The position numbers and the translations under genes are program-made. A stretch of DNA of 64,000 nucleotides from assembly GCA_963811705.1 (NCBI GenBank), contig CAWESL010000007.1, positions 218,100 to 282,099 of the forward strand, written 5' to 3'. Source of the stretch: Ignavibacteriota bacterium (GTDB lineage Bacteria > Bacteroidota > Ignavibacteria > UBA10030 > UBA6906). A model generated the notes under the pieces. That model was given only the letters and a program-made list of their open reading frames with translations. It had not been told where the DNA came from and searched no databases. This document shows, one piece after another, positions 44,743 through 63,638 of the stretch (the stretch's first letter is position 1; each line of letters opens with the position of its first letter).

Positions 44743-47739
44743 TCATTTACTCCTTTCCAACCGATGATAGCTTTCCGGCGGGCCGAGATAGCTCGGGCGG
44801 ACATTCCCGACGCTCACGACCACCTTTTCGAGCACGACCTCAGGATCCACCATCCAGATCTTCAAGGTGTGATAGCCGGGCGTTGTGATCCGATGTGTTG
44901 AACGGCTGATCTGGCCATTGTTCTCCACAAGTCGCTCCCAGATGCTGTTTCCGTTCTGGGCGCTGAACGACTTCGGAAGAAGAGAGACAACCTGAGGGTG
45001 TTCCGCGTCAAAGGAGACTCCGTATCGGACACCTCTGTCGGGGTCGAAGTTCAGCGAGGGACCGAAATACCCCTGCACGTCGACGTTCCCTGTGTCGAGC
45101 AGATACATGCGATATTCGAGGCACGAACAGTTTCTTCCGGGCTCTAAGGGTGGAGAATTGATGGGAAGTGTGGCTCGCATCCCGGAGAGTGTGTGTCCAT
45201 AGCCCTCGACTTTGATCCATCTGCCTGGGCCGATTTCCGATCTTTTGGTGAAGTGTTCCGCCGCCATTGACACGTAACCTTCACCCTCGAGGAATCCGCG
45301 CAATGTGGCCGTCACAGCAGATGGCGGAAGAGAGGTCTTCACAAGAACCGCGACTTCTTTGTCAGCTCCCTTGATAACGACCGTCCCGATCTCACCACTG
45401 CTTCGCACTTTAGCCCAATCGATGCTCACCCAGATTCGGTTCTGGAGATTGACGGTCCCCGCCGGCTGGTCGATCCTCATCCAGGGTCGATCACCAACGG
45501 CGATGTAGGAAAACGGTTTCTTTCCCCTGTTGAATATTTCGATCGAATGACGGCGACCATTGAACGGATCGAACAACGGAAGCGCGGGGACCTGTTCAGA
45601 GCCCGGCCAGGAATCCTGCGACCCTTCCACGGCCACGCCCATCGCCGCCGAATCGGGCACGGTCAAATCCACGAGGGGGATTGCCTGAAGGCTGTTTGTC
45701 GGTGGATCGGCCCACGTAGTATAGCCGAGATGTGTTTGGTCCATGAAATGATCCCACTTCCCCCCGGCCAACGTGCGATTGAAATAACCCATAAGTGCCG
45801 TATCGCTCGAGAAGAGCGCCCGTGTCCGGTCTGCCATCGATGTGGTGATCGCCCTCCCCTGCTTCGCATACAATGCATTCAATCCTGCAGAATAATAGAG
45901 CTCGTTCACGATGGACGAGGCCTGCGTTGGAAACAGGACAAGCTCGAAGAATGCGTCTTGTTGATTCTTCGGCAGGTCCGCTGAGATCGTCTCCGCTTTG
46001 CTGGTCAGGGCTGCGAAATCCTTCACCACCCTTTCCGCTTCCTGATAGTTGACGAGACTATAGGTGTTTGGACTCAGGAGTTCAGGTTTCCGTCTGCCAT
46101 TGTATTTGGTATACGACTCAAGGATTTGTGCGATCCCGTCGGCGTGTTTGCCTCCAAATTCTCTTGCCGCCCACTGCCGCGTGTAATCGTCGATGTTCGA
46201 ATTCGTCCATCGACCTGTATTCCAGGCCAGGTCCATGAAATATTCCATCGGCAGCTCATATCCCTTGAAATGGCCGACGTTGACAATCCAGATGCGGTCC
46301 GCGCCGTATTTCTTGGCGAGCGACATTTGTTCCCAGATCTTGGGCAGCGGATTGGTATTGACCCATTGATAGCTCCTGGGTCCCCCGTGGTAGTCAAAAT
46401 GATAGTAGATGCCGGCACCGCCGCTCCGCTTGCGTTCATCAGCCGTCGGCAGCCGCCGGATGTTACCCCAATTGTCGTCGGGCCACAGGATGGTAACATC
46501 ATCGGGGACGCGCATACCGGCATTGTAGAAGTCAAGCACCTCCTTATACGGGCACCAGAGCTGGGGAATCTTCGTCGCATCCGGATTCATTTCTTCCGAC
46601 AGGATCTTTCGTTGCACCGTAACGATATCCTTCAGGAGCGCCATGTTTTCTTCCGGCCCACCGGGGGCCATCGGCGTATCGTTTGCCCCTCGGAGCCCTA
46701 TCGTGATGATGCTTTCATAGCGTTTGTTCCGCCGGATCCCTTCGCGCCAGAAATTCTGCAGGGTGTCCGGGTATTTGGCGTAGTTCCAGGTGCCGAGCGA
46801 GCTCAGGTATCTCCTGTCCCACTCCTTTTGCGCGCGCAACATCGGCTCCTGGTGCGAGGTCCCCATGACAATCCCCAGTTCGTCCGCGAGGCGTGCGTTG
46901 AGCGAATCGTCCTCGTTGAACGCATTGTTCCACATGGCCGGCCAGAGATAGTTCGCCTTGAGCCGGAGGAGGAGCTCGAAGATCCGCCCATAGAAGACAT
47001 GGCCATAGTTGGCGACGTCGGGAGGAACAGGCGGGTCTGTACGCACCGTGGCGGACCCGTATTTTGCCGCGACCCATTTTGTCAGGGCCGGGTATTCGTC
47101 GTTCAGAAAAATCCCGCGGTATTTCACGGAGGGAGGGCCATCACGGTGAGAGCCCGGCGTTATGCAAAGGTCGGAATGATGTTTGACCGGCACGTCGGCC
47201 CACCAATACCACGGCGATACACCGATGCGTTCTGAAATGCGAAAAAGCGCATACATGGTCCCGCGCTTGTCGCTCCCGACAACAACAAGAGCGCGATCAA
47301 CCCCGGGAACCGGGTTCGCAACCTGCACGATGAGAGACGATTCCCATTTCCCCGCGATCCCTGAGACGTCGATCTTCTTCCTTCGGACCAGAGCGTCAAT
47401 GACCGGGTTCCTCCCGAGCGTGCCAACCAGAACCACCGCTTTCGCGTCGGGCACAACGTCGATGCAGATTTCCGGACGGCTGCCGCAGACGGAATCAAGG
47501 TCGTTTTGAAACAGCGAAAGCACCCGGAGGACGCCCGGGTAATCCCCGGCGCTCGCGCACAGGGGGACAGGCTTTCCCGAGGCCGCGAGAGGGAATCCTC
47601 CATGGGAAATCTCGAAGCGCACAAATGGTTCACCACCGATGGCGAAGGCCTTCCCGGCATATGCCGAGAAAAGGAGAACCAGCGAAACGACGAATGGCAA
47701 ATACGGTGCCGGGGGTCGGGAGGGGCTTGGACGATTCAT
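44743..47739 (-). CDS. GH115 family xylan alpha-1,2-glucuronidase
   Basis: 998 aa, signal peptide, Trp-rich GH115-like core (SPWYWWADVPV, HFDYHGGPRSYQW). Confidence 0.65.
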   Translation of the reverse strand: MNRPSPSRPPAPYLPFVVSLVLLFSAYAGKAFAIGGEPFVRFEISHGGFPLAASGKPVPLCASAGDYPGVLRVLSLFQNDLDSVCGSRPEICIDVVPDAKAVVLVGTLGRNPVIDALVRRKKIDVSGIAGKWESSLIVQVANPVPGVDRALVVVGSDKRGTMYALFRISERIGVSPWYWWADVPVKHHSDLCITPGSHRDGPPSVKYRGIFLNDEYPALTKWVAAKYGSATVRTDPPVPPDVANYGHVFYGRIFELLLRLKANYLWPAMWNNAFNEDDSLNARLADELGIVMGTSHQEPMLRAQKEWDRRYLSSLGTWNYAKYPDTLQNFWREGIRRNKRYESIITIGLRGANDTPMAPGGPEENMALLKDIVTVQRKILSEEMNPDATKIPQLWCPYKEVLDFYNAGMRVPDDVTILWPDDNWGNIRRLPTADERKRSGGAGIYYHFDYHGGPRSYQWVNTNPLPKIWEQMSLAKKYGADRIWIVNVGHFKGYELPMEYFMDLAWNTGRWTNSNIDDYTRQWAAREFGGKHADGIAQILESYTKYNGRRKPELLSPNTYSLVNYQEAERVVKDFAALTSKAETISADLPKNQQDAFFELVLFPTQASSIVNELYYSAGLNALYAKQGRAITTSMADRTRALFSSDTALMGYFNRTLAGGKWDHFMDQTHLGYTTWADPPTNSLQAIPLVDLTVPDSAAMGVAVEGSQDSWPGSEQVPALPLFDPFNGRRHSIEIFNRGKKPFSYIAVGDRPWMRIDQPAGTVNLQNRIWVSIDWAKVRSSGEIGTVVIKGADKEVAVLVKTSLPPSAVTATLRGFLEGEGYVSMAAEHFTKRSEIGPGRWIKVEGYGHTLSGMRATLPINSPPLEPGRNCSCLEYRMYLLDTGNVDVQGYFGPSLNFDPDRGVRYGVSFDAEHPQVVSLLPKSFSAQNGNSIWERLVENNGQISRSTHRITTPGYHTLKIWMVDPEVVLEKVVVSVGNVRPSYLGPPESYHRLERSK

Positions 47740-47751
47740 CGTGGACCTCGT

Positions 47752-49038
47752 TCATTCAGGACATGCTTCAACCACATGGCCTGTGGGATCATAGATTCTG
47801 AAATTGCCGCTCACCTGGAGCATTCCGAGCAGATACAGCATCCCGTCGTAGTACCGATACAATCCGGACGGGGTATTCGCATCCCAAAGTTGACGCACGA
47901 ATGTTCTCCTGATATCGAGAGTCGACGCGAGACAGGCCGAGGCATTCATCGCCACAAGCCCGGTGCTATGGTCGTTGCTGAGTTTCGTGCCGCCTAACGA
48001 GTACTGGTTGCCATAACTCTCCTCTCCCTGAGAGTGAAAGAAGGAGAGCAGCCGGTTCGACCGATTCACCTCTCCCCGGTCTTTCGCAAACCAGACCCAG
48101 TCGATGGCCTGATTCATTCCCACGCGCCACGCGTCGAAGCGGAAATCGTTGTGCTGCCCCGGCCAGGACACCACTGGAGTCCCGTCAAAGTTGCAATAGT
48201 CCGGCGAGAGCCCGGTTGCGGTATCGGCGGTCCTGTTCAGGAGGGTCCGGCTCGCAGATGCTGCGTCGCACCAGAACCCGTTGTCCAGGGCGGCCCAACG
48301 GGCCCACAACTCATAGAAGTGGGGAGTCTGATAGGACGGGTCGGAGAAATGATCGGCGTTTTTCGATGGAACAAAGGCGACGAGATGATGTCGGGCATTG
48401 AACATGTTGGAGACCGATCCATGACCGGGCTCGGATTCTTTGTGGAGCATCGTCTGCAGGATGGACTCCGCTTCGTGCCGGTAGTCGTAAATTCCCTGCC
48501 CGTCCCCCCACCGCGCAGAGGCGAAGAACAACGACATCACAAACCACTCTTCCCCGTCGGATGCAGCCGTCGAATCCAGAATTGCCCCTTCGTTGGTGCA
48601 GTGCCATGCAAAATACCCTCTGTGCGGGCCTTCCTTCATCTGCATGTACGTTGTCGCCCACTTCCACAACCGGTCAAAAACATCCCGCCTGCCCAGCTGA
48701 ACGGCGATCATCATTCCATACGACATGCCCTCGGTGCGGACATCTTTGTTGGCGACATCGAGAACGTAGGCCATATCCTGCCCGGCCGGATAGTACACCC
48801 GCTGGGTACGGTCGTCGCCGAAGAACAACTGCTCGAATGCCGAATCAATCTTTTCGTTCACTTGGGCGGAACGCATTCCCAGCAGTTCGACGAACAAATT
48901 GGGATAGCTTCGGGTATAGTACGCGCCCTGCGCCTTCGCCTGCGGGAACGTTCGGAGCGAATCCTGTCCGAGAGCCGTCCCGGTATGTCCGGCGGCAAGG
49001 AGGAGGACACCAATGCAAAAGATCGCTGAGATCTTCAT
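47752..49038 (-). CDS. GH8 family glycoside hydrolase (reducing-end xylose-releasing exo-oligoxylanase-like)
   Basis: GH8 signature TEGMSYGMM and an (alpha/alpha)6 pattern. Signal peptide. Confidence 0.7.
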   Translation of the reverse strand: MKISAIFCIGVLLLAAGHTGTALGQDSLRTFPQAKAQGAYYTRSYPNLFVELLGMRSAQVNEKIDSAFEQLFFGDDRTQRVYYPAGQDMAYVLDVANKDVRTEGMSYGMMIAVQLGRRDVFDRLWKWATTYMQMKEGPHRGYFAWHCTNEGAILDSTAASDGEEWFVMSLFFASARWGDGQGIYDYRHEAESILQTMLHKESEPGHGSVSNMFNARHHLVAFVPSKNADHFSDPSYQTPHFYELWARWAALDNGFWCDAASASRTLLNRTADTATGLSPDYCNFDGTPVVSWPGQHNDFRFDAWRVGMNQAIDWVWFAKDRGEVNRSNRLLSFFHSQGEESYGNQYSLGGTKLSNDHSTGLVAMNASACLASTLDIRRTFVRQLWDANTPSGLYRYYDGMLYLLGMLQVSGNFRIYDPTGHVVEACPE

Positions 49039-50888: not shown

Positions 50889-52778
50889 TTAGTTTGAGAC
50901 GAATGTCGTAATGCTCGACGGGTCGAGCGTAGCCTGGAAGCTTCCGTGGACAGTCGGGATGTCGGTTCCCCGGGTGCAGTTTTTCGCGATCGACGTTGTA
51001 TAAGACGAAAACGACGCCGCGGGCCCGTTTGCCATGACAAAGCCTTGTTGGATCGGCGACGACCCGGTGTTTATCGCGACGATGACAATCTTCGAAGTGG
51101 TGCCGTCTCGGTATGCCGAGATCCAGACATTCCGCTGGGGAGTGGCGAAGCAGCCGATCCTCGTATATCCCGGGCGTACGAACTTCGCGAATTGCGACAT
51201 AACATAACCGCGCTTGGTCACGGTCCCGTCCTCGGCGATCGGTCCATAGTACCTCACGATGTACCACCAGACGTACGCATTCATGCCGGCGTTCAGGCAA
51301 TCATGGATTTCCTTCCCGGTTGCGAGGACCGCCGACCAGCTCGTGTCAAGCACCAGATGTTCCGTCATCCAGAAGTCTTTTCCTTTGCTGACGGCAAGAG
51401 GATACGGACCGAGCCCTCCGCCGTAGATATGTCCGGCGATGATGGATAAATTCGCTGCTGCCGCAGAATCATTCAGCGTCGGGTCAGACAATGCGTGGAC
51501 GAAATTCTGGGATTCCGGCATCATCACCCTGGTCCCGATGGACCCGGCATTATTCTTGGTGAACTTCAGGAACTGCGCGCCATTCCAACTGCACGACTCG
51601 TACGTGACGTTGGCGTCCGGTTCATTCTGCAGCGATACGGCATACAAGGGCACGCCATTCCCTGCCATGTAGTCGGCGAAGTTCCTGAGGTGCGCGGCAT
51701 AGGATGCGTAGGACGAATCGTTGAGCACCCCCGCAACGATACTGTCACTGCTTTTCATCGCCGGCGGAGGGGTCCACGGCGTCGCGAAAACAATGGCGCC
51801 GAGCGATTGCGCAAGCGTCGCCGTCGGCAGGTTTGCACTGAACTCGCTCACGTTATCCGTGAAGGGGATCCGCAGGCGAAGGATCGTCAGCCCGATCTGA
51901 CCGGGCCCTGTCCCGAATGCCGTTTGAACCTGGGCGGAGGTCATGTCGGGCCGCCAGGGCAGAATATTCGCTCCTCCAAATCCCCGGATCGTCTGGAGCA
52001 CGCTGTCCAGCACCACTCGCGAAGTCGGTATCGCGACCTGTGCATTCACAACGAAGTCCAATGTGGTATCGCTTTCGACGACAACATTGTCAAATTCGGC
52101 GGGAAGCACATTTGGCGAAGTTCCGACCGCCGTGTCTATGCGCACGGAGAATGCCGTCGCTGACACTGTCCGCAGGATTCCTGGGGCCGTGTTTGGTGCC
52201 GGCAACCCAAGGGGGATTTGCAGCGAGGGGACACCGCCGTTTCCTTCGCCGAAGACCATCTTCCTTGTCTGCATTTCGTTCCCTGCCTGCAGACTATAGA
52301 AATAGACACCGGCAGCCACCCGGTGCCCGCTGCCATTGTTGCCGTCCCAAAGAACGCTATGCGTGCCCGGTGACTGGGTCCCGGAACGCATTGAACGTAT
52401 CACCCTCCCGAGAATGTCATAGATCGTGACTTTGATATCCTCTTGCGTCTTGAGCTTGTATGGGATGGCCGTCGACGTCATAAACGGGTTCGGATAGTTC
52501 TGCTCGAGTTCAAATTTGGCCGGCAGAGTATTGGCAGGCATAACGGAAGTGAGGGAGAGTTGCATCTGGTATTTTCCCGTCGAGTCCGTACGCACAGAAG
52601 TAGCGTTCGTCGGATTCGCGGTCTGCGCAAAGGTGATAGAGGCATTTCGCACTGGTGCAGTCGACGTCGTCACGCTGCCTTCCACGACGACAGTCTGGGC
52701 GGAGACGATGGCGGGAGGCAGTGCCAGGCCAAGGCAAAGGGCCATGAGGATCAGGCGGCCGAAGGAAAGCTTTGTCAT
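50889..52778 (-). CDS. GH30 (subfamily-8-like glucuronoxylanase) fused downstream of an N-terminal Ig-like domain and an internal T9SS-CTD-like domain
   Basis: Signal peptide, then a CarbopepD_reg-like beta-sandwich, then a CTD-like block (KFELEQNYPNPFMTSTAIPYKL...VTIYDILGRVIRSM...GVYFYSLQAGNEMQTRKMVF), then GH30 motifs GFGGANI, SLQNEPD and WMTEH. Single continuous ORF. Confidence 0.6.
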   Translation of the reverse strand: MTKLSFGRLILMALCLGLALPPAIVSAQTVVVEGSVTTSTAPVRNASITFAQTANPTNATSVRTDSTGKYQMQLSLTSVMPANTLPAKFELEQNYPNPFMTSTAIPYKLKTQEDIKVTIYDILGRVIRSMRSGTQSPGTHSVLWDGNNGSGHRVAAGVYFYSLQAGNEMQTRKMVFGEGNGGVPSLQIPLGLPAPNTAPGILRTVSATAFSVRIDTAVGTSPNVLPAEFDNVVVESDTTLDFVVNAQVAIPTSRVVLDSVLQTIRGFGGANILPWRPDMTSAQVQTAFGTGPGQIGLTILRLRIPFTDNVSEFSANLPTATLAQSLGAIVFATPWTPPPAMKSSDSIVAGVLNDSSYASYAAHLRNFADYMAGNGVPLYAVSLQNEPDANVTYESCSWNGAQFLKFTKNNAGSIGTRVMMPESQNFVHALSDPTLNDSAAAANLSIIAGHIYGGGLGPYPLAVSKGKDFWMTEHLVLDTSWSAVLATGKEIHDCLNAGMNAYVWWYIVRYYGPIAEDGTVTKRGYVMSQFAKFVRPGYTRIGCFATPQRNVWISAYRDGTTSKIVIVAINTGSSPIQQGFVMANGPAASFSSYTTSIAKNCTRGTDIPTVHGSFQATLDPSSITTFVSN

Positions 52779-52959
52779 CTGGTTGCAGTCGCCGCTGAAC
52801 AGGCAGGATTCATGGCGGGGAGTCATGTTCACAATGTCCTTTGCGCATCTCCAATGGTTTTTCAATTCCCCTGTTTCAATGATGCCATGGGGCAGAACTT
52901 TTCGATTTGGTTTCTGAGATGACGAGGGTGGGATGGGGAATGCCTCCTCCGCACTCGCC

Positions 52960-58620: not shown

Positions 58621-60411
58621 CTACTTCATCAGAACCAGCTTTTTCGTGAGAGAATTGGCACCCGCCTGCAGCGTGTAGAAATAGACGCCGCTGGCGAGGC
58701 TCGCGCCATTGAACGTCACCGAATGCTGTCCGGCGCTCTGCGTGCCTTCGAACAACGTCGCCACTTCCTGGCCGAGAATATCGTACACCTTGAGTGAAAC
58801 GGTTCCCGCTTTTCCGAGAGAGTATTCGATATTGGTAACAGGATTGAACGGATTCGGATAATTCTGACTCAGGGCATAGCTGGCCGGGGCAGACGACTGG
58901 TTCGGCACGCCCGTAAGCCCGTGTTCAAGATAGTCCTGAATCTTTGCGTCCTCTGATGCGCGCTGGGCCTTCCACCCCGAGTAGTAGGTGGGAATATTGT
59001 TCCACCATCGAGACAGATCTCCGAGAGGGAATCCGCCCATGGCGGCGGTCTTCAGCGTTGCGTTGGTGTACCGCATCTGTTCATTCGTCGGCCAGACCTG
59101 GTTGACGTCCGAATGGGGGTCAAACGCCCAGGTCGTATCCGAGTTGTCCGTCCATTTCCGCAGGAGGAAGCTCTTGATGCCATCCTGGTTTGTCGGCGGA
59201 ATGAGGAACCCCGGGTTCGTCGAGTCATAGATATTTCCCATCGAGATGTAGGGCCAGGTGTTCTTGTCCTGGAAGAACACCATCGTCTTCGCACTCATGA
59301 TGGGCTGAGGTCGCGGTACGCTGTCGGGATACGCAGAAAAAACCCGATTGCTGTAGGGGTTGCCTCCTGTGGGGTTGGTCGTTGCGTCGTAGGGCGCCAT
59401 ATAGTTGATCAGCCACTGATCGTACGAGTAGCTGTTGTTGGAAAAGAGTATGTGTCTATCGGCCTCGGTAAAGGGGACGGAAAAACTAAAGTTTGCCGAC
59501 CCGATGGTGTCGATATTCACTGCTCCGCCGACAGGAGTTGTACCGTCGGTCGCCGGAATATACCCGAACATGAAGGGGTTCACAAAAACCGAATTGGTCA
59601 CGGAAAGCCAGTGCCACCAACCGGATTCCAGAGCGTACATGACGACGTTCAGGAAGGTGCAATGGTTGAACTTCACGTAGTCGGCGTACTCGGCGCCTTC
59701 CTGCATATACACATATCCCATATTCGCGAACGTCGTATTGACGAAGGAGAGACTGTCAATATGCCACCCCGAAGTGTTGAACGTAAAAGACACGGCTCTT
59801 CCATAATACCGGAAGTGCGTGTCTGTGCAGTTACGGAAGTAGCAATTCTCAAACGACAGCCGGGCATGGCTTGCCGAGACGGTCACCGCTCCACCCCCGC
59901 CCCCTATCGGCGCATAATCGAAGATTACATTCTGGAACACGCCGTTGTTCACATTATCGGTCGTGTCCTGGTCGATGTTCAATGCTGTGCCGACCTGTGT
60001 CCCAACGCCATCCGTATTGGTGGTGGCATACAGAAGCCAGATGTTCTTCATGTAGATATCACCATAACAATCGAAGTTCCACGTCGTGGTGACCCCACTT
60101 GCCGGAGTCCAGCAGATCATCGGCGGTGCAGTTTCCTGCGTTGTTCCCGGGTCCGGAGCGACGATCGTCAGCTTCGATCCGGCGGGGACGGTGATCGTGG
60201 CGCTCAGGACATAAATACCCCACGGCTTCAACCGAAAGACCGTGTTGGAGAGAGTTCCGGCCGTGATCTTGGCAGAAACTGCTGCGTTGAGGCTCCCTTC
60301 ACCGCCGGTCGGGTCAAGAAAATCCGGGACATCCACCGTATCGGTCTGTGCAAAAAGTAGAGCGGGCCAAAGGACCGCGAACAAAGCAAAAGCGTATGCA
60401 CATTTCTTCAT
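58621..60411 (-). CDS. secreted parallel beta-helix-like protein with T9SS CTD
   Basis: Signal peptide, repeated N/C-x-x-F beta-helix-like segments, CTD YALSQNYPNPFNPVTNIEY...VYFYTLQAGANSLTKKLVLMK. Confidence 0.5.
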   Translation of the reverse strand: MKKCAYAFALFAVLWPALLFAQTDTVDVPDFLDPTGGEGSLNAAVSAKITAGTLSNTVFRLKPWGIYVLSATITVPAGSKLTIVAPDPGTTQETAPPMICWTPASGVTTTWNFDCYGDIYMKNIWLLYATTNTDGVGTQVGTALNIDQDTTDNVNNGVFQNVIFDYAPIGGGGGAVTVSASHARLSFENCYFRNCTDTHFRYYGRAVSFTFNTSGWHIDSLSFVNTTFANMGYVYMQEGAEYADYVKFNHCTFLNVVMYALESGWWHWLSVTNSVFVNPFMFGYIPATDGTTPVGGAVNIDTIGSANFSFSVPFTEADRHILFSNNSYSYDQWLINYMAPYDATTNPTGGNPYSNRVFSAYPDSVPRPQPIMSAKTMVFFQDKNTWPYISMGNIYDSTNPGFLIPPTNQDGIKSFLLRKWTDNSDTTWAFDPHSDVNQVWPTNEQMRYTNATLKTAAMGGFPLGDLSRWWNNIPTYYSGWKAQRASEDAKIQDYLEHGLTGVPNQSSAPASYALSQNYPNPFNPVTNIEYSLGKAGTVSLKVYDILGQEVATLFEGTQSAGQHSVTFNGASLASGVYFYTLQAGANSLTKKLVLMK

Positions 60412-60461: not shown

Positions 60462-63400
60462 CTACATGGTATACCTCACCCCGAAATTCGCTGTGAGGCC
60501 ATAATATTGCTGGGATGTGAAACCACCGATCGAAGCCTGCGCCGCGTCATTTCTTCGATTGTTGAGATTGCTGATATCCAGGAACAGCTGGAGGCCGGTC
60601 CAGGGAAGCCTCTGCCGCACTGACGCATCGATGCGGAAATAGTCTTTGGTAAAGCCGTCTTGCTCTGCAAAGGCTCCGATTGTGCTCACGGAATTCCCCT
60701 GGAACAGGAAGGAGAGTCGACCTGAAAACCCCTCGTAGTCGTAGCCGATGTATGCGTTCAGAACATCGTCAGGCTGGTTGAGTAATCGTCCGGAACGCGT
60801 GCTGTCAACCGTGACGACTTTCAGCGTGCGGGGAGGGATGATAATGGTTTTGTCATTCCTCCAGGGATAAGTCGCACTCGACGAGATATGAGTGTAATTG
60901 ATTCCGAACACGATTCCGTCCAACGGTGCGGGCAAATACCAGAACCTCGTTTGGAGGTCAATCTCAAATCCTCGTATGTACGCTTTGTAGGGACTGTTCA
61001 TGTACGTGTAGAGTTGCGCACCATCCTTGGGATGGACTATTCCGCTGCCAGTGCTTACCGCGAATGAATTGATGGAATCAAGTCCTGGCGGAGCAGTAGG
61101 GTGTAACGCATACTGGGTGTAGAACGCAAAATTCCTGACTTCCTTATAGAAACCCCCGATCGACAGGAGTCCCAGCTCATTACTGTGGAAAGTAAGGAAG
61201 ATATCGTGATTGATTGCCTCAGCCGGCACCAACTTCGGGTTCCCCGCCCAGACATTGAACTGGGTATAATCCATATTGAAGTGCGGTGAAAGCTGCGAAT
61301 AATCAGGTCGTGCAAGGGTCTTCGTGTAGGAGTAACGCAGATCGGCCCAATCCACCATGCTCCATCTTGCCTGGACCATGGGGAGCAAATAGCGATTGCC
61401 GGGATGAGCAAAAACCGTATCAACGGTCTGATGCGTTGCATCACGCCCATCAGCCAGGTTGAAGGCATCAAAGTATCCCTTGACTTCCTCCCACCGGACG
61501 CCTCCCACGACCATTACATTTTCCAAGAAGTGGAGCTCGGACATCAAATACCCGGCATAGTACCTCTCGATATATTTGTACTGGTTCGGCAAGCGCTGGT
61601 ACGGCGAGTCAAACCACCCGCCGGCGTTGGTCCCGGTGCTGTTAATTGCGCTTACCGACGGGTCGGTCCGCAAGAGATCCACGATTCCGTTCAAATTGGT
61701 CGGATCACTGGCCCAAAGAACACTTCCGAATCCGTTGTTGAGGAAGGAGCTTGTAAGTTTCGAATCTGTTGAGGTAAAATCCTCCCCTGTAAAATTCGCT
61801 CCGGTTTGATTATCAACGACGAACCATGGGTAATGCTGCAATATCAACGCCTGCATTTGATTCGTGATCGGAGAGCCTGCGCGAAGGCCCGCATAGGGAG
61901 TACCCTGAGTATTCGTGTGGTAATTGTAGCGAAACTCGCCGCCGAACTTGAGGAACCCCGAGGTGAGGTTTTCCAGGTTGAAGGGGACTTTGAAGTCGCC
62001 TTTGTAGACCTGGTCGTTTTCCTTATAGTCGGCGCTGAACAAGCTGACATTCGTGAGATATGTCCACGACGGATCCTTGTACTTGACGGAAGGAATGAGA
62101 GCCTCTGGCACCGTGTTCACCTCTGTCTGCCCTGGGATTCCCCCGGTTTGGGTGAAATCAAACTGCGGGGATGCGGGAGCAAAATTCCGGGAATACGTAT
62201 TGGCGGCTTCAAGCTCTATAGAAAGAAATCCCAGATCGTTCTCATAGCTAAGGGAGTTGAGTGCCGCGTCTGTCTTGGTGTTCCCCCCCCGGTACCTGAA
62301 GTTGATATTGTGAAATTGATAATCGTAGATGGTCCGGTAATCCTGCGCGTCGGAACTCAACCGGCTGAGAACATTGACCGATTTGAGGGAACCCGAACCC
62401 AGTTTGTAGTCAAGAATCAGATTCCCTCCATATCGGCTCCTGGTTTCCAGATGGCGATCGAGCGTCACATTCGTCACAATGACGGGTCTGAATCCGTCCG
62501 GTTGAGGAATACTCCCCTGGGGTGAATAGGAGGCATTCATGTTGTCCGCATCCCGGTCATATTTCTCAGCGTTACCCAGGACGTAGACGCCCAGGGCACC
62601 GTCAAGGAACCGATCGCTGGCGGAAGCAATGAACCTGTAGTTTCCATATTTGCCGCTCTTCTGTGTGTAGCCGGACTGCCCCAAAATGTCAGAATGGAAA
62701 CCCTCGGGGGCCTCTCTGAGTTGCATATTCACATACCCGCCAATCGCGTTTGCATCCATGTCCGGCGTGAGCGACTTATAGACCTCCACTGTTTTGATCA
62801 TGTACGGGGTGATCATCGAAAGGTCGACGCTTCGGTCGGTATTGATAGACCCAGAGGTGCCGCCCTGGGAGGCGGCCCCGATCTGCGTGCTCCCCGTTGA
62901 TGCGAGCGTGATCCCGCCTACGGCAACCGCGTTAAATTGAGGAGCCAATCCTCTGATGACGACCTTGTTCGCTTCTCCGGAACTCTGAAGCGTTGATACC
63001 CCCGGCAATCGGCCGATCGCCGCTGCCGCATTGAAGTCCGGCAGTTCCTGAATCCTCGCCTCCGAAACGATGCTCGCGATTTTATCCGAAGAAAGCTGCT
63101 GGTTGATCGCCTGCATCTGCCCTTTCGCCTGCCCGGTCACCACGATCGTCTGGCCTTCGATGACCTGCGCGACAAGCGATCCGTCGGCGATCACATCCTG
63201 GTTATCCTTGACCGTGACCTGTTTCTTGATCGTGACATACCCGACGAACGAAATCTGCAGTGACTGCGCTCCGACCGGGACGTTGTAGATGATATAATTG
63301 CCGTTGAGATCGGTCGCAGCACCCAGGCCGGTTCCCACCACGATCACATTCGCCCCCGGCAACGCGTCCTTGCTGTCCCGATCCGTGATTTTTCCCTTGA

Positions 63401-63524
63401 GGGTTCCTGTCCCGGCCGCAAGCAGCGTCTGCGCGGCGAACAGGACGAGGACCGCCATCCGAGCTCCCACCCTGATCCCCTGCCTCCCGAATGTACTGTT
63501 CAGGAATCGTAACGAGTTGCCCAT
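60462..63524 (-). CDS. TonB-dependent outer-membrane receptor with N-terminal carboxypeptidase-regulatory-like domain
   Basis: CarbopepD_reg-like GKITDRDSKDALPGANVIVVGT...DLNGNYII, a plug region, a long beta-barrel and a terminal aromatic-containing strand GVRYTM. Start chosen at the internal Met with signal peptide. Confidence 0.7.
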   Translation of the reverse strand: MGNSLRFLNSTFGRQGIRVGARMAVLVLFAAQTLLAAGTGTLKGKITDRDSKDALPGANVIVVGTGLGAATDLNGNYIIYNVPVGAQSLQISFVGYVTIKKQVTVKDNQDVIADGSLVAQVIEGQTIVVTGQAKGQMQAINQQLSSDKIASIVSEARIQELPDFNAAAAIGRLPGVSTLQSSGEANKVVIRGLAPQFNAVAVGGITLASTGSTQIGAASQGGTSGSINTDRSVDLSMITPYMIKTVEVYKSLTPDMDANAIGGYVNMQLREAPEGFHSDILGQSGYTQKSGKYGNYRFIASASDRFLDGALGVYVLGNAEKYDRDADNMNASYSPQGSIPQPDGFRPVIVTNVTLDRHLETRSRYGGNLILDYKLGSGSLKSVNVLSRLSSDAQDYRTIYDYQFHNINFRYRGGNTKTDAALNSLSYENDLGFLSIELEAANTYSRNFAPASPQFDFTQTGGIPGQTEVNTVPEALIPSVKYKDPSWTYLTNVSLFSADYKENDQVYKGDFKVPFNLENLTSGFLKFGGEFRYNYHTNTQGTPYAGLRAGSPITNQMQALILQHYPWFVVDNQTGANFTGEDFTSTDSKLTSSFLNNGFGSVLWASDPTNLNGIVDLLRTDPSVSAINSTGTNAGGWFDSPYQRLPNQYKYIERYYAGYLMSELHFLENVMVVGGVRWEEVKGYFDAFNLADGRDATHQTVDTVFAHPGNRYLLPMVQARWSMVDWADLRYSYTKTLARPDYSQLSPHFNMDYTQFNVWAGNPKLVPAEAINHDIFLTFHSNELGLLSIGGFYKEVRNFAFYTQYALHPTAPPGLDSINSFAVSTGSGIVHPKDGAQLYTYMNSPYKAYIRGFEIDLQTRFWYLPAPLDGIVFGINYTHISSSATYPWRNDKTIIIPPRTLKVVTVDSTRSGRLLNQPDDVLNAYIGYDYEGFSGRLSFLFQGNSVSTIGAFAEQDGFTKDYFRIDASVRQRLPWTGLQLFLDISNLNNRRNDAAQASIGGFTSQQYYGLTANFGVRYTM

Positions 63525-63638
63525 AGGAGTATCTCCTTGATTGATCATGCGGTCAGACTCCGTGATCCGATGGCGTCCGGTCGTCCGTGCTATCCGGATT
63601 GTCCTTCGACCTGAGACCACGGGCGACCTCAGAGTGCG

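Follow-up and report, generated by a model that had tools for sequence, protein, structure and literature searches.

Recognition, prediction and annotation of type IX secretion system (T9SS) cargo assume that the sorting domain lies at the extreme C-terminus of the exported protein. Characterised enzymes of glycoside hydrolase (GH) family 30, subfamily 8 (GH30_8), begin directly after the signal peptide, and the modular ones among them carry a C-terminal module. The T9SS signal resides in the fold of the C-terminal domain (CTD), and the T9SS components PorU and PorZ keep their CTDs and are surface-associated (PMC5445135). Type A CTDs are recognised by PorV (PMC12618676), and uncleaved T9SS substrates build up bound to this protein (PMC5562754). 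In the flagellar hook-cap protein FlgD, an immunoglobulin (Ig)-like domain forms a hybrid with a Tudor-like β-domain (PMC8595650). Here, we analysed a window of 64,000 nucleotides (64 kb) from an Ignavibacteriota bacterium (contig CAWESL010000007.1, positions 218,100 to 282,099), in which the product of a GH30 xylanase gene (50889–52778, minus strand) bears a homologue of the T9SS type A CTDs close to its N-terminus. This probably nested, N-terminal CTD homologue departs from the rule of a terminal position and belongs to a cassette that is real and, as far as we found, undescribed; full-text literature searches returned no description of an internal or N-terminal T9SS CTD or of such a cassette.

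A preliminary description of the window had placed a CTD-like module at 52253–52517 (residues 88–175), and this assignment was borne out by profile searches. Residues 95–175 matched the NCBIfam model TIGR04183 'T9SS type A sorting domain' (44.0 bits, cut-off 23, E = 1.7e-11), as well as the Pfam families PF18962 Por_Secre_tail (30.3 bits, cut-off 27) and PF13860 FlgD_ig (46.5 bits, cut-off 27). A motif scan of the window revealed six NYPNPF-type modules, five of which sat 81–88 residues before the stop codon, in a Laminin_G_3 (concanavalin A-like lectin) protein, two GH10 xylanases, an FG-GAP protein and a protein of 596 amino acids (aa), the sixth being the internal module of the GH30 protein. 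Over its full length, the latter could be aligned to the five genuine CTDs with 38–48% identity, compared to 45–57% among those five, and held every hallmark block of a CTD, namely LxQNYPNPF, IYDxLGR, WDG, GVYFY and the RKM strand. However, where the genuine CTDs finish with ..LMK-stop, the internal module continues with ..RKMVF-GEGNGG; it ends at residue 176 of 629, with 453 residues following. AlphaFold2 (AF2) predicted seven strands between residues 89 and 176, and a seven-strand Ig-like β-sandwich is the definition of the CTD fold (PMC5445135). By these comparisons, which go far beyond chance, the segment is truly homologous to the type A CTDs of the T9SS, and the module is both conserved (see below) and clearly CTD-related, in contrast to an Fn3- or Ig-type domain unrelated to CTDs. 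A long loop between WDG and GVY, considered as a sign of a distinct FlgD-like subtype, was rejected as such, equal spacing being present in 55 of 101 canonical C-terminal CTDs.

With regard to position, 106 of 112 CTD-type matches in the loci examined stopped at most 12 residues before the stop codon, so that an internal position is atypical for this sequence family. This sample includes 80 genome loci retrieved by the patterns LxQNYPNPF and A[VI]S[LIV]QNEPD; since the former is very common, the pattern scan yielded canonical CTD loci together with distant GH30s, and it was used as a background sample. None of the 80 pattern-retrieved loci contained the cassette, and the architecture is rare.

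The gene, with the evidence for each part in brackets (pLDDT, predicted local distance difference test score), is laid out as follows:

50889–52778, minus strand: whole gene of a secreted GH30_8 xylanase of 629 aa with an N-terminal cassette (open reading frame and translation; homologues share the start)
52698–52778, minus strand: Sec signal peptide, residues 1–27 (MTKLSFGRLILMALCLGLALPPAIVSA; read by eye from the sequence)
52545–52697, minus strand: putative half 1 of a split CarboxypepD_reg-like β-sandwich, residues 28–78, four strands (PF13620 profile positions 2–43 of 82; AF2)
52518–52544, minus strand: linker 1, residues 79–87, leading into the inserted domain (pLDDT <50; column conservation 0.47)
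52251–52517, minus strand: inserted T9SS type A CTD / FlgD_ig-like seven-strand β-sandwich, residues 88–176 (profile models, AF2, Foldseek)
52164–52250, minus strand: linker 2, residues 177–205, Gly/Pro-rich, predicted to be disordered (pLDDT 30–50; column conservation 0.32)
52038–52163, minus strand: putative half 2 of the split CarboxypepD_reg-like domain, residues 206–247, AFSVRIDT...DTTLDFVV (splice scans, AF2, co-conservation)
50892–52037, minus strand: GH30 subfamily 8 glucuronoxylanase module, TIM barrel plus side β-domain, residues 248–629
51621–51623 and 51360–51362, minus strand: invariant Glu residues E386 (NEP motif) and E473 (TEH motif)

The protein starts with MTKLSFGRL, and the stop codon lies at 50889–50891. 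The public protein for this gene (P0001, 645 aa) starts 16 codons upstream (MTPRHESC...; 52779–52826, minus strand), while the ATG at 52778, which gives 629 aa, is the start favoured by homologues and by the signal-peptide pattern. The signal peptide shows n, h and c regions with VSA↓Q, the predicted signal peptidase I cut falling before Q28. This residue was invariant across 78 aligned homologues, and Gln as the first mature residue fits the Bacteroidetes Q-rule (PMC5837995). A lipoprotein signal was ruled out: the Cys is part of the hydrophobic core, has Leu at -1 and lacks a lipobox context, it is absent in other cassette families, and the conserved site is A-x-A↓Q. Of the signal peptide and Ig-like domain that had been proposed to precede the module, the former stood and the latter did not, the region matching half a domain only.

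In particular, the stretch of approximately 50 residues that links the signal peptide to the module matched just the first half of CarboxypepD_reg (PF13620 positions 2–43 of 82), and the pattern of the second half (Y-x-V-x-I ... DTTLDF-x-V) was found behind it, in residues 206–247. We joined the two flanks without the insert and scanned them against PF13620, for which the Pfam gathering cut-off is 32.3 bits. The spliced flanks of two cassette relatives scored 44.5 bits (positions 1–81 of 82) and 47.5 bits (1–81 of 82), compared to 39.8 and 35.7 bits for the N-terminal halves alone (gains of 4.7 and 11.8 bits, respectively), and those of the GH30 family member P0087 reached 33.2 bits (2–79) from 24.7 bits (+8.5). 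Two further cassette relatives rose from 33.4 to 34.4 bits and from 30.5 to 32.7 bits. The window protein gave 23.1 bits (2–78 of 82), below the cut-off, versus 26.3 bits for its N-terminal half alone. Addition of the C-terminal half thus increased the score in five of six pairs. Furthermore, a profile of 31 spliced sequences aligned continuously, albeit weakly (E = 0.03), through the junction to the solved scaffoldin module 4wi0.

The structural models followed the same order. In the AF2 model of the full protein (pLDDT 82.8), four strands at residues 27–77 (27–37, 47–52, 59–63 and 69–77) preceded the module, which was followed by a disordered stretch (179–205), further strands at 208–234 and then the GH30 fold; in a model of the cassette only, both halves had pLDDT values of 91–97 (94–97 for residues 206–247) and both linkers were below 50. 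Linker 2, which is variable and differs in length between homologues, carries the chain back to the host domain. Most likely, the CTD-like domain is nested in a loop of a CarboxypepD_reg-like β-sandwich, the most economical reading of the order being CarboxypepD_reg(1–45), CTD-like domain, return linker and CarboxypepD_reg(46–82), and the profile alignments and pLDDT values suggest that the two halves would pack in one β-sandwich. As in ordinary members of PF13620, such as the N-terminal extension of the TonB-dependent receptor encoded at 60462–63620 of the window, the whole profile is covered by the two flanks jointly in cassette relatives; unlike in these members, the putative host domain of the window protein is split behind position ~45 by 127 inserted residues, which comprise linker, CTD-like domain and linker. 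FlgD resembles this arrangement in that its Ig-like fold is nested in a second small β-domain, although the host domain differs (Tudor-like versus CarboxypepD_reg).

Two D-(S/T)-T triplets are strongly conserved in the host domain, TDST at residues 64–67 (52578–52589) and SDTT at residues 236–239 (52062–52073), and both fit D(S/T)X, the general O-glycosylation motif of Bacteroidota (PMC11969387). These triplets are also ordinary CarboxypepD_reg consensus positions, so this match may mean nothing.

The architecture was widely conserved among relatives of the GH30 protein. From 5.8 billion proteins, 1521 relatives were retrieved, of which the best 120 showed 54–100% identity (54–83% excluding the window's own product) and were near full length save a few fragments. 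Nearly all of these 120 bear the same Pfam domain pair, with NYPNPF around residue 93 in the full-length relatives and at a lower residue number where the N-terminus is truncated. The architecture recurs in more than 110 cluster representatives of 54–83% identity, which stem from independent assemblies, and none of them has a C-terminal CTD. The claim that the GH30 portion lacks such a domain was likewise upheld: the window protein ends in ...SSITTFVSN and its relatives terminate in ..SSITTFVS(N/K), which is the GH30 C-terminus. In an alignment of 78 sequences, 15 of the 89 residues of the module were invariant, and the mean column conservation was 0.71 for the module and 0.77 for the GH30 part.

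These data bear on two origins that had been suggested for the internal module, an assembly join of chimeric reads and a very recent in-frame fusion by recombination between CTD repeats. Both are extremely improbable. It is true that six CTD-type sequences within 64 kb are potential recombination repeats. Nevertheless, more than 110 independent representatives are full length with the same architecture, down to 54% identity, which removes the chimera, and the sequence behind the module completes the domain begun before it. The internal module is just 50–57% identical in nucleotides to the other CTDs of the window, so that recombination between them was not recent. The gene is also found in a similar xylan locus in two syntenic relatives (contigs of 735 kb and 1.8 Mb), and in neither is there a separate small CTD gene immediately upstream. 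Between the window and one relative (L081), the module is 61% identical, compared to 52%, 62% and 79% for the true CTDs encoded by three genes nearby; these figures do not set the module apart as more strongly constrained than a disposable CTD. Of the two options originally put forward, recruitment of a CTD-like β-sandwich for another role is the better one.

The complete GH30 catalytic domain reported behind the module was found as described. Residues 251–629 matched the XynC glucuronoxylanase model NF052681 over positions 7–394 of 395 (375 bits, below the equivalog cut-off of 650) and the PDB entries 1NOF (E = 1e-97, chain residues 11–382 of 383) and 3GTN (E = 7e-92). E386 (QNEPD) and E473 (MTEH), which we take to be the catalytic acid/base and nucleophile of GH30, were invariant in 78 sequences, and because of this invariance the protein is probably an active glucuronoxylan endoxylanase. 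It shares the full barrel, the side β-domain and both Glu residues with the GH30_8 enzymes Dickeya XynA (1NOF), Bacillus XynC (3GTN/3KL0) and Xyn30D (4QAW); unlike in these structures, an N-terminal cassette is present, a region over which none of the PDB matches extends.

Similarity to distant GH30 homologues begins at residues 232–262 of the window protein, in most of those examined soon after their own signal peptide, and by sequence the catalytic module is complete without the cassette. On the suggested check of whether orthologous GH30s start after the module, distant homologues do so and close relatives carry the whole cassette. Distant GH30s of Bacteroidales and FCPU426 end in ordinary T9SS CTDs, those of Ruminococcus in dockerins and those of Myxococcota in a Cys-rich, hydrophobic, Arg-rich C-terminal anchor. 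In the GH30 family of the window, the N-terminal cassette is the sole extra module, and it hence takes the place of a module for localisation. In L083 (9924–11048), which is a more distant relative, the GH10 enzyme beside the GH30 is just 374 aa long and lacks a CTD, while the GH30 retains the cassette, which indicates that the two kinds of module are gained and lost independently.

The cassette was not confined to GH30 proteins. When residues 29–250 were used as the HMMER query against all of 1.84 billion cluster representatives, 280,504 proteins with a CTD/FlgD_ig-type domain were obtained (E ≤1e-3). Within the best 150, approximately 75 representatives (50% clustering) matched residues 29–245 in one stretch at 33–47% identity, the match falling at their own N-termini (residues ~30–250). 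The unit comprises around 220 residues and starts at the first mature residue, Q28 in the window protein and a Gln directly behind the signal peptide in the cassette proteins inspected. The regions that follow it formed at least 16 groups without detectable mutual similarity, among which we identified PD40 propellers (27 representatives), BNR/YCF48-like proteins (14), GH30, leucine-rich repeat (LRR) plus PKD proteins, FGE-sulfatase-type, right-handed β-helix and FG-GAP proteins, and one GH79C-containing protein. One group of nine gave no Pfam match past the cassette, one of its members being called a YncE-type β-propeller by JGI. Each of the 79 cassette proteins with a length of 420 aa or more had exactly one NYPNPF motif, which was never within 100 residues of the C-terminus. 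Going beyond the preliminary description, the module is thus probably located inside a split CarboxypepD_reg domain, within a 220-residue cassette carried by at least 16 unrelated protein groups.

Inserts of different families shared a mean identity of 50.5%, compared to 40.3% between inserts and 101 canonical CTDs and 44.0% among the canonical CTDs themselves. The nearest neighbour of an insert was another insert in 29 of 31 cases, and the inserts nonetheless fell within the sequence spread of the canonical CTDs. For these reasons, an essentially single origin of the cassette, from an ordinary CTD of the lineage, followed by its shuffling as a unit, is well supported by the sequence comparison. 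Across three contexts, no partner gene was conserved beside the cassette genes; canonical CTD proteins were encoded next to them.

Four proteins of 714–1038 aa (P0254, P0261, P0263 and P0272) matched half 1 and the insert (query ~3–187), not half 2, and may represent variant or degenerate cassettes. The annotation of cassette proteins was uneven (P0172, P0003, P0072, P0106): JGI names one LRR/PKD protein 'flagellar hook assembly protein FlgD' and the GH30 family members 'glucuronoarabinoxylan endo-1,4-beta-xylanase', while the NCBI names of the latter are 'FlgD immunoglobulin-like domain containing protein' or 'T9SS type A sorting domain-containing protein'.

The range of attached proteins also weighs on two roles that would be specific to enzymes or to xylan. 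That the cassette is a removable pro-region, acting as an intramolecular chaperone, an inhibitor or a transient sorting element and cleaved in a linker or after residue 247, would agree with its invariable position directly N-terminal of the cargo, with the disordered linkers bordering the insert and with the completeness of distant GH30s without it, their homology starting from residue ~250. However, the cassette is also present on non-enzymatic propeller, LRR and FG-GAP proteins, which need no pro-peptide, and its junction with the cargo shows no visible conserved cleavage motif, so we regard this function as improbable. Even less probable is a xylan- or carbohydrate-binding module (CBM) directing the GH30 to its substrate. 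CBMs typically have β-sandwich folds, and GH30s of other phyla bear extra C-terminal extensions or modules, but the cassette (33–47% identity) occurs on FGE-sulfatase, PD40, BNR, LRR and β-helix proteins unrelated to xylan, and the Pfam scan gave no match to a CBM family. Since the cargo proteins have nothing in common but export, a general localisation role for the cassette, instead of substrate binding or catalysis, has moderate support. The domains attached to it are typical of T9SS cargo.

In terms of structure, a Foldseek search of the cassette model against PDB returned FlgD first (3osv, E = 6e-5; 7eh9, root-mean-square deviation of 1.8 Å over 70 columns, 30% identity), followed by the CTD-bearing T9SS components PorU (6za2) and PorZ (5m11); 3osv was also matched by sequence (E = 9e-5). 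FlgD (PF13860; 3OSV, 7EH9, 7EHA) is thus the best Pfam and structural match to the module. The likeness did not extend to the remainder of FlgD. No match to PF03963 or PF13861, which represent its N-terminal helix and Tudor-like domain, was obtained in the GH30 protein at E ≤0.01, and the full-length FlgD model NF005176 reached 38 of the 230 bits that its cut-off requires, with the Ig part alone covered. Moreover, unlike FlgD, the protein is a xylanase of a polysaccharide locus and not of a flagellar one, and its NYPNPF-type sequence is of the CTD type. Compared with a T9SS type A CTD, the module agrees in sequence family, motifs, length, the seven-strand Ig-like sandwich and the Sec-exported carrier, and in being encoded in a genome rich in canonical CTD proteins. 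It differs in being internal and probably nested instead of C-terminal, such that one cut would not remove it without nicking the protein, and in that its last strand passes into a Gly-rich linker.

From these features a function may be proposed, at a tentative level. A nested CTD fold could not be cut away without breaking the protein, and as nesting would prevent its removal, the module would be retained; the carrier system of the T9SS, with a PorV-type shuttle, may still recognise it as a folded CTD. The domain would then remain on the protein as a permanent export and surface-tethering module. The model has a parallel in PorU and PorZ, in which the CTD is retained and surface association comes about by binding of the PorV and PorQ barrels (PMC5445135, PMC5562754). 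Like them (6ZA2, 5M11), the cassette is proposed to keep a CTD fold in the mature protein; unlike theirs, its CTD is not at the C-terminus, and PorV-type binding is proposed by analogy. The xylanase would thereby be held at the cell surface, close to the TonB-dependent receptor of the locus. As a whole, a nested, shuffled cassette with T9SS recognition and PorV-type tethering is the best explanation that we can offer, although we rate it at somewhat below even odds; the functional part on its own, that the nested CTD is read by the T9SS carrier and keeps the protein surface-bound, is a little more tentative still.

Several observations weigh against this proposal. T9SS signals are defined, and in practice validated, as C-terminal (PMC11969387), and loss of the last two residues of RgpB blocks export (PMC5445135), whereas the last strand of the module continues into a linker. 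A PorU-type cleavage before the module would split the host domain in two. The split-domain reading itself comes from profile alignments and pLDDT values, and the window protein is the sole pair in which splicing brought no gain on PF13620 (23.1 versus 26.3 bits). In addition, Pfam scores the insert better on FlgD_ig than on Por_Secre_tail, and FlgD_ig-type domains also occur in 8–15 internal tandem copies in giant proteins, so that the FlgD_ig/CTD-like fold is found as internal repeats as well, presumably structural ones. Finally, no T9SS machinery gene was seen in the annotated part of the 64-kb window; the five canonical C-terminal CTD proteins encoded in the window would imply a T9SS in the host. 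The giant proteins (P0125–P0133, P0141, P0144 and others) are 1250–2460 aa long with repeated SPNPF motifs, and several have S8 peptidase-like first residues.

Part of these points would suit a T9SS-independent Ig-like building block, serving as a spacer, a stalk, an oligomerisation surface or an envelope-binding domain, in which case the enzyme would be periplasmic or exported by another route. Such a role is possible and nearly as likely as recognition by the T9SS. It would fit the internal FlgD_ig-type domains of large proteins, with up to 15 tandem copies, the Pfam scores (FlgD_ig 46.5 bits versus Por_Secre_tail 30.3) and the unfree C-terminal end of the module fold; the top structural matches belong to FlgD, in which the domain has a structural role (PMC8595650), and several enzymes of the locus (GH8, GH115, GH43 and CE15) are wholly without a CTD. 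On the other hand, the insert lies within the sequence range of genuine C-terminal CTDs from the same phyla and retains the N-terminal boundary of a true CTD as well as the K-K-M motif of the last strand. A C-terminal CTD was present in none of 79 cassette proteins, though their domain types often bear one, and 15 invariant residues in 89 would be unneeded for a plain spacer.

Within the T9SS-dependent proposal, stronger forms can be envisaged. It is rather doubtful that the cassette represents a second, N-terminal T9SS route, with an irremovable CTD tethering xylanase, propeller, LRR, sulfatase-maturase-like and β-helix proteins alike. A variant that is more speculative is that PorU would cut linker 1 and join the 50-residue N-terminal half to lipopolysaccharide, and, equally speculatively, that the remaining protein would be held by β-sheet complementation within the split domain.

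The role of the cassette decides the site of glucuronoxylanase action, that is, cell surface or periplasm. If the cassette is T9SS-dependent, the position of the signal would be a matter of habit only, cargo predictors would overlook a class of substrates, and a natural, non-cleavable surface-display tag for Bacteroidota would be available. If it is not, a secretion signal domain would have been reused structurally through domain insertion, which would call for caution in annotation.

The GH30 gene lies within a glucuronoxylan-utilisation locus. In addition to it, this locus encodes a TonB-dependent receptor with a CarboxypepD_reg extension, the 596-aa CTD protein, an FG-GAP/ASPIC CTD protein, a GH35/42-like protein with DUF5597, two GH10 xylanases with CTDs, GH8, GH115, a CE15 glucuronoyl esterase, GH43, a xylose-isomerase-like protein and an FGGY-family kinase. 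The receptor gene (60462–63620, minus strand) is followed by that of the 596-aa protein (58621–60411, minus strand), in which no domain other than a C-terminal T9SS CTD could be recognised; both genes are kept as a pair in the relative L081 (1–2975), the body of the protein being 77% identical. Given that it occupies the place of the SusD-like lipoprotein in a Bacteroides polysaccharide locus, the 596-aa protein may be a T9SS-delivered glycan-binding partner. GH8 (47752–49038) and GH115 (44743–47739) are separate adjacent genes on the minus strand of the window, and in L081 (13672–17829) a single 1385-aa product comprising both domains was called.

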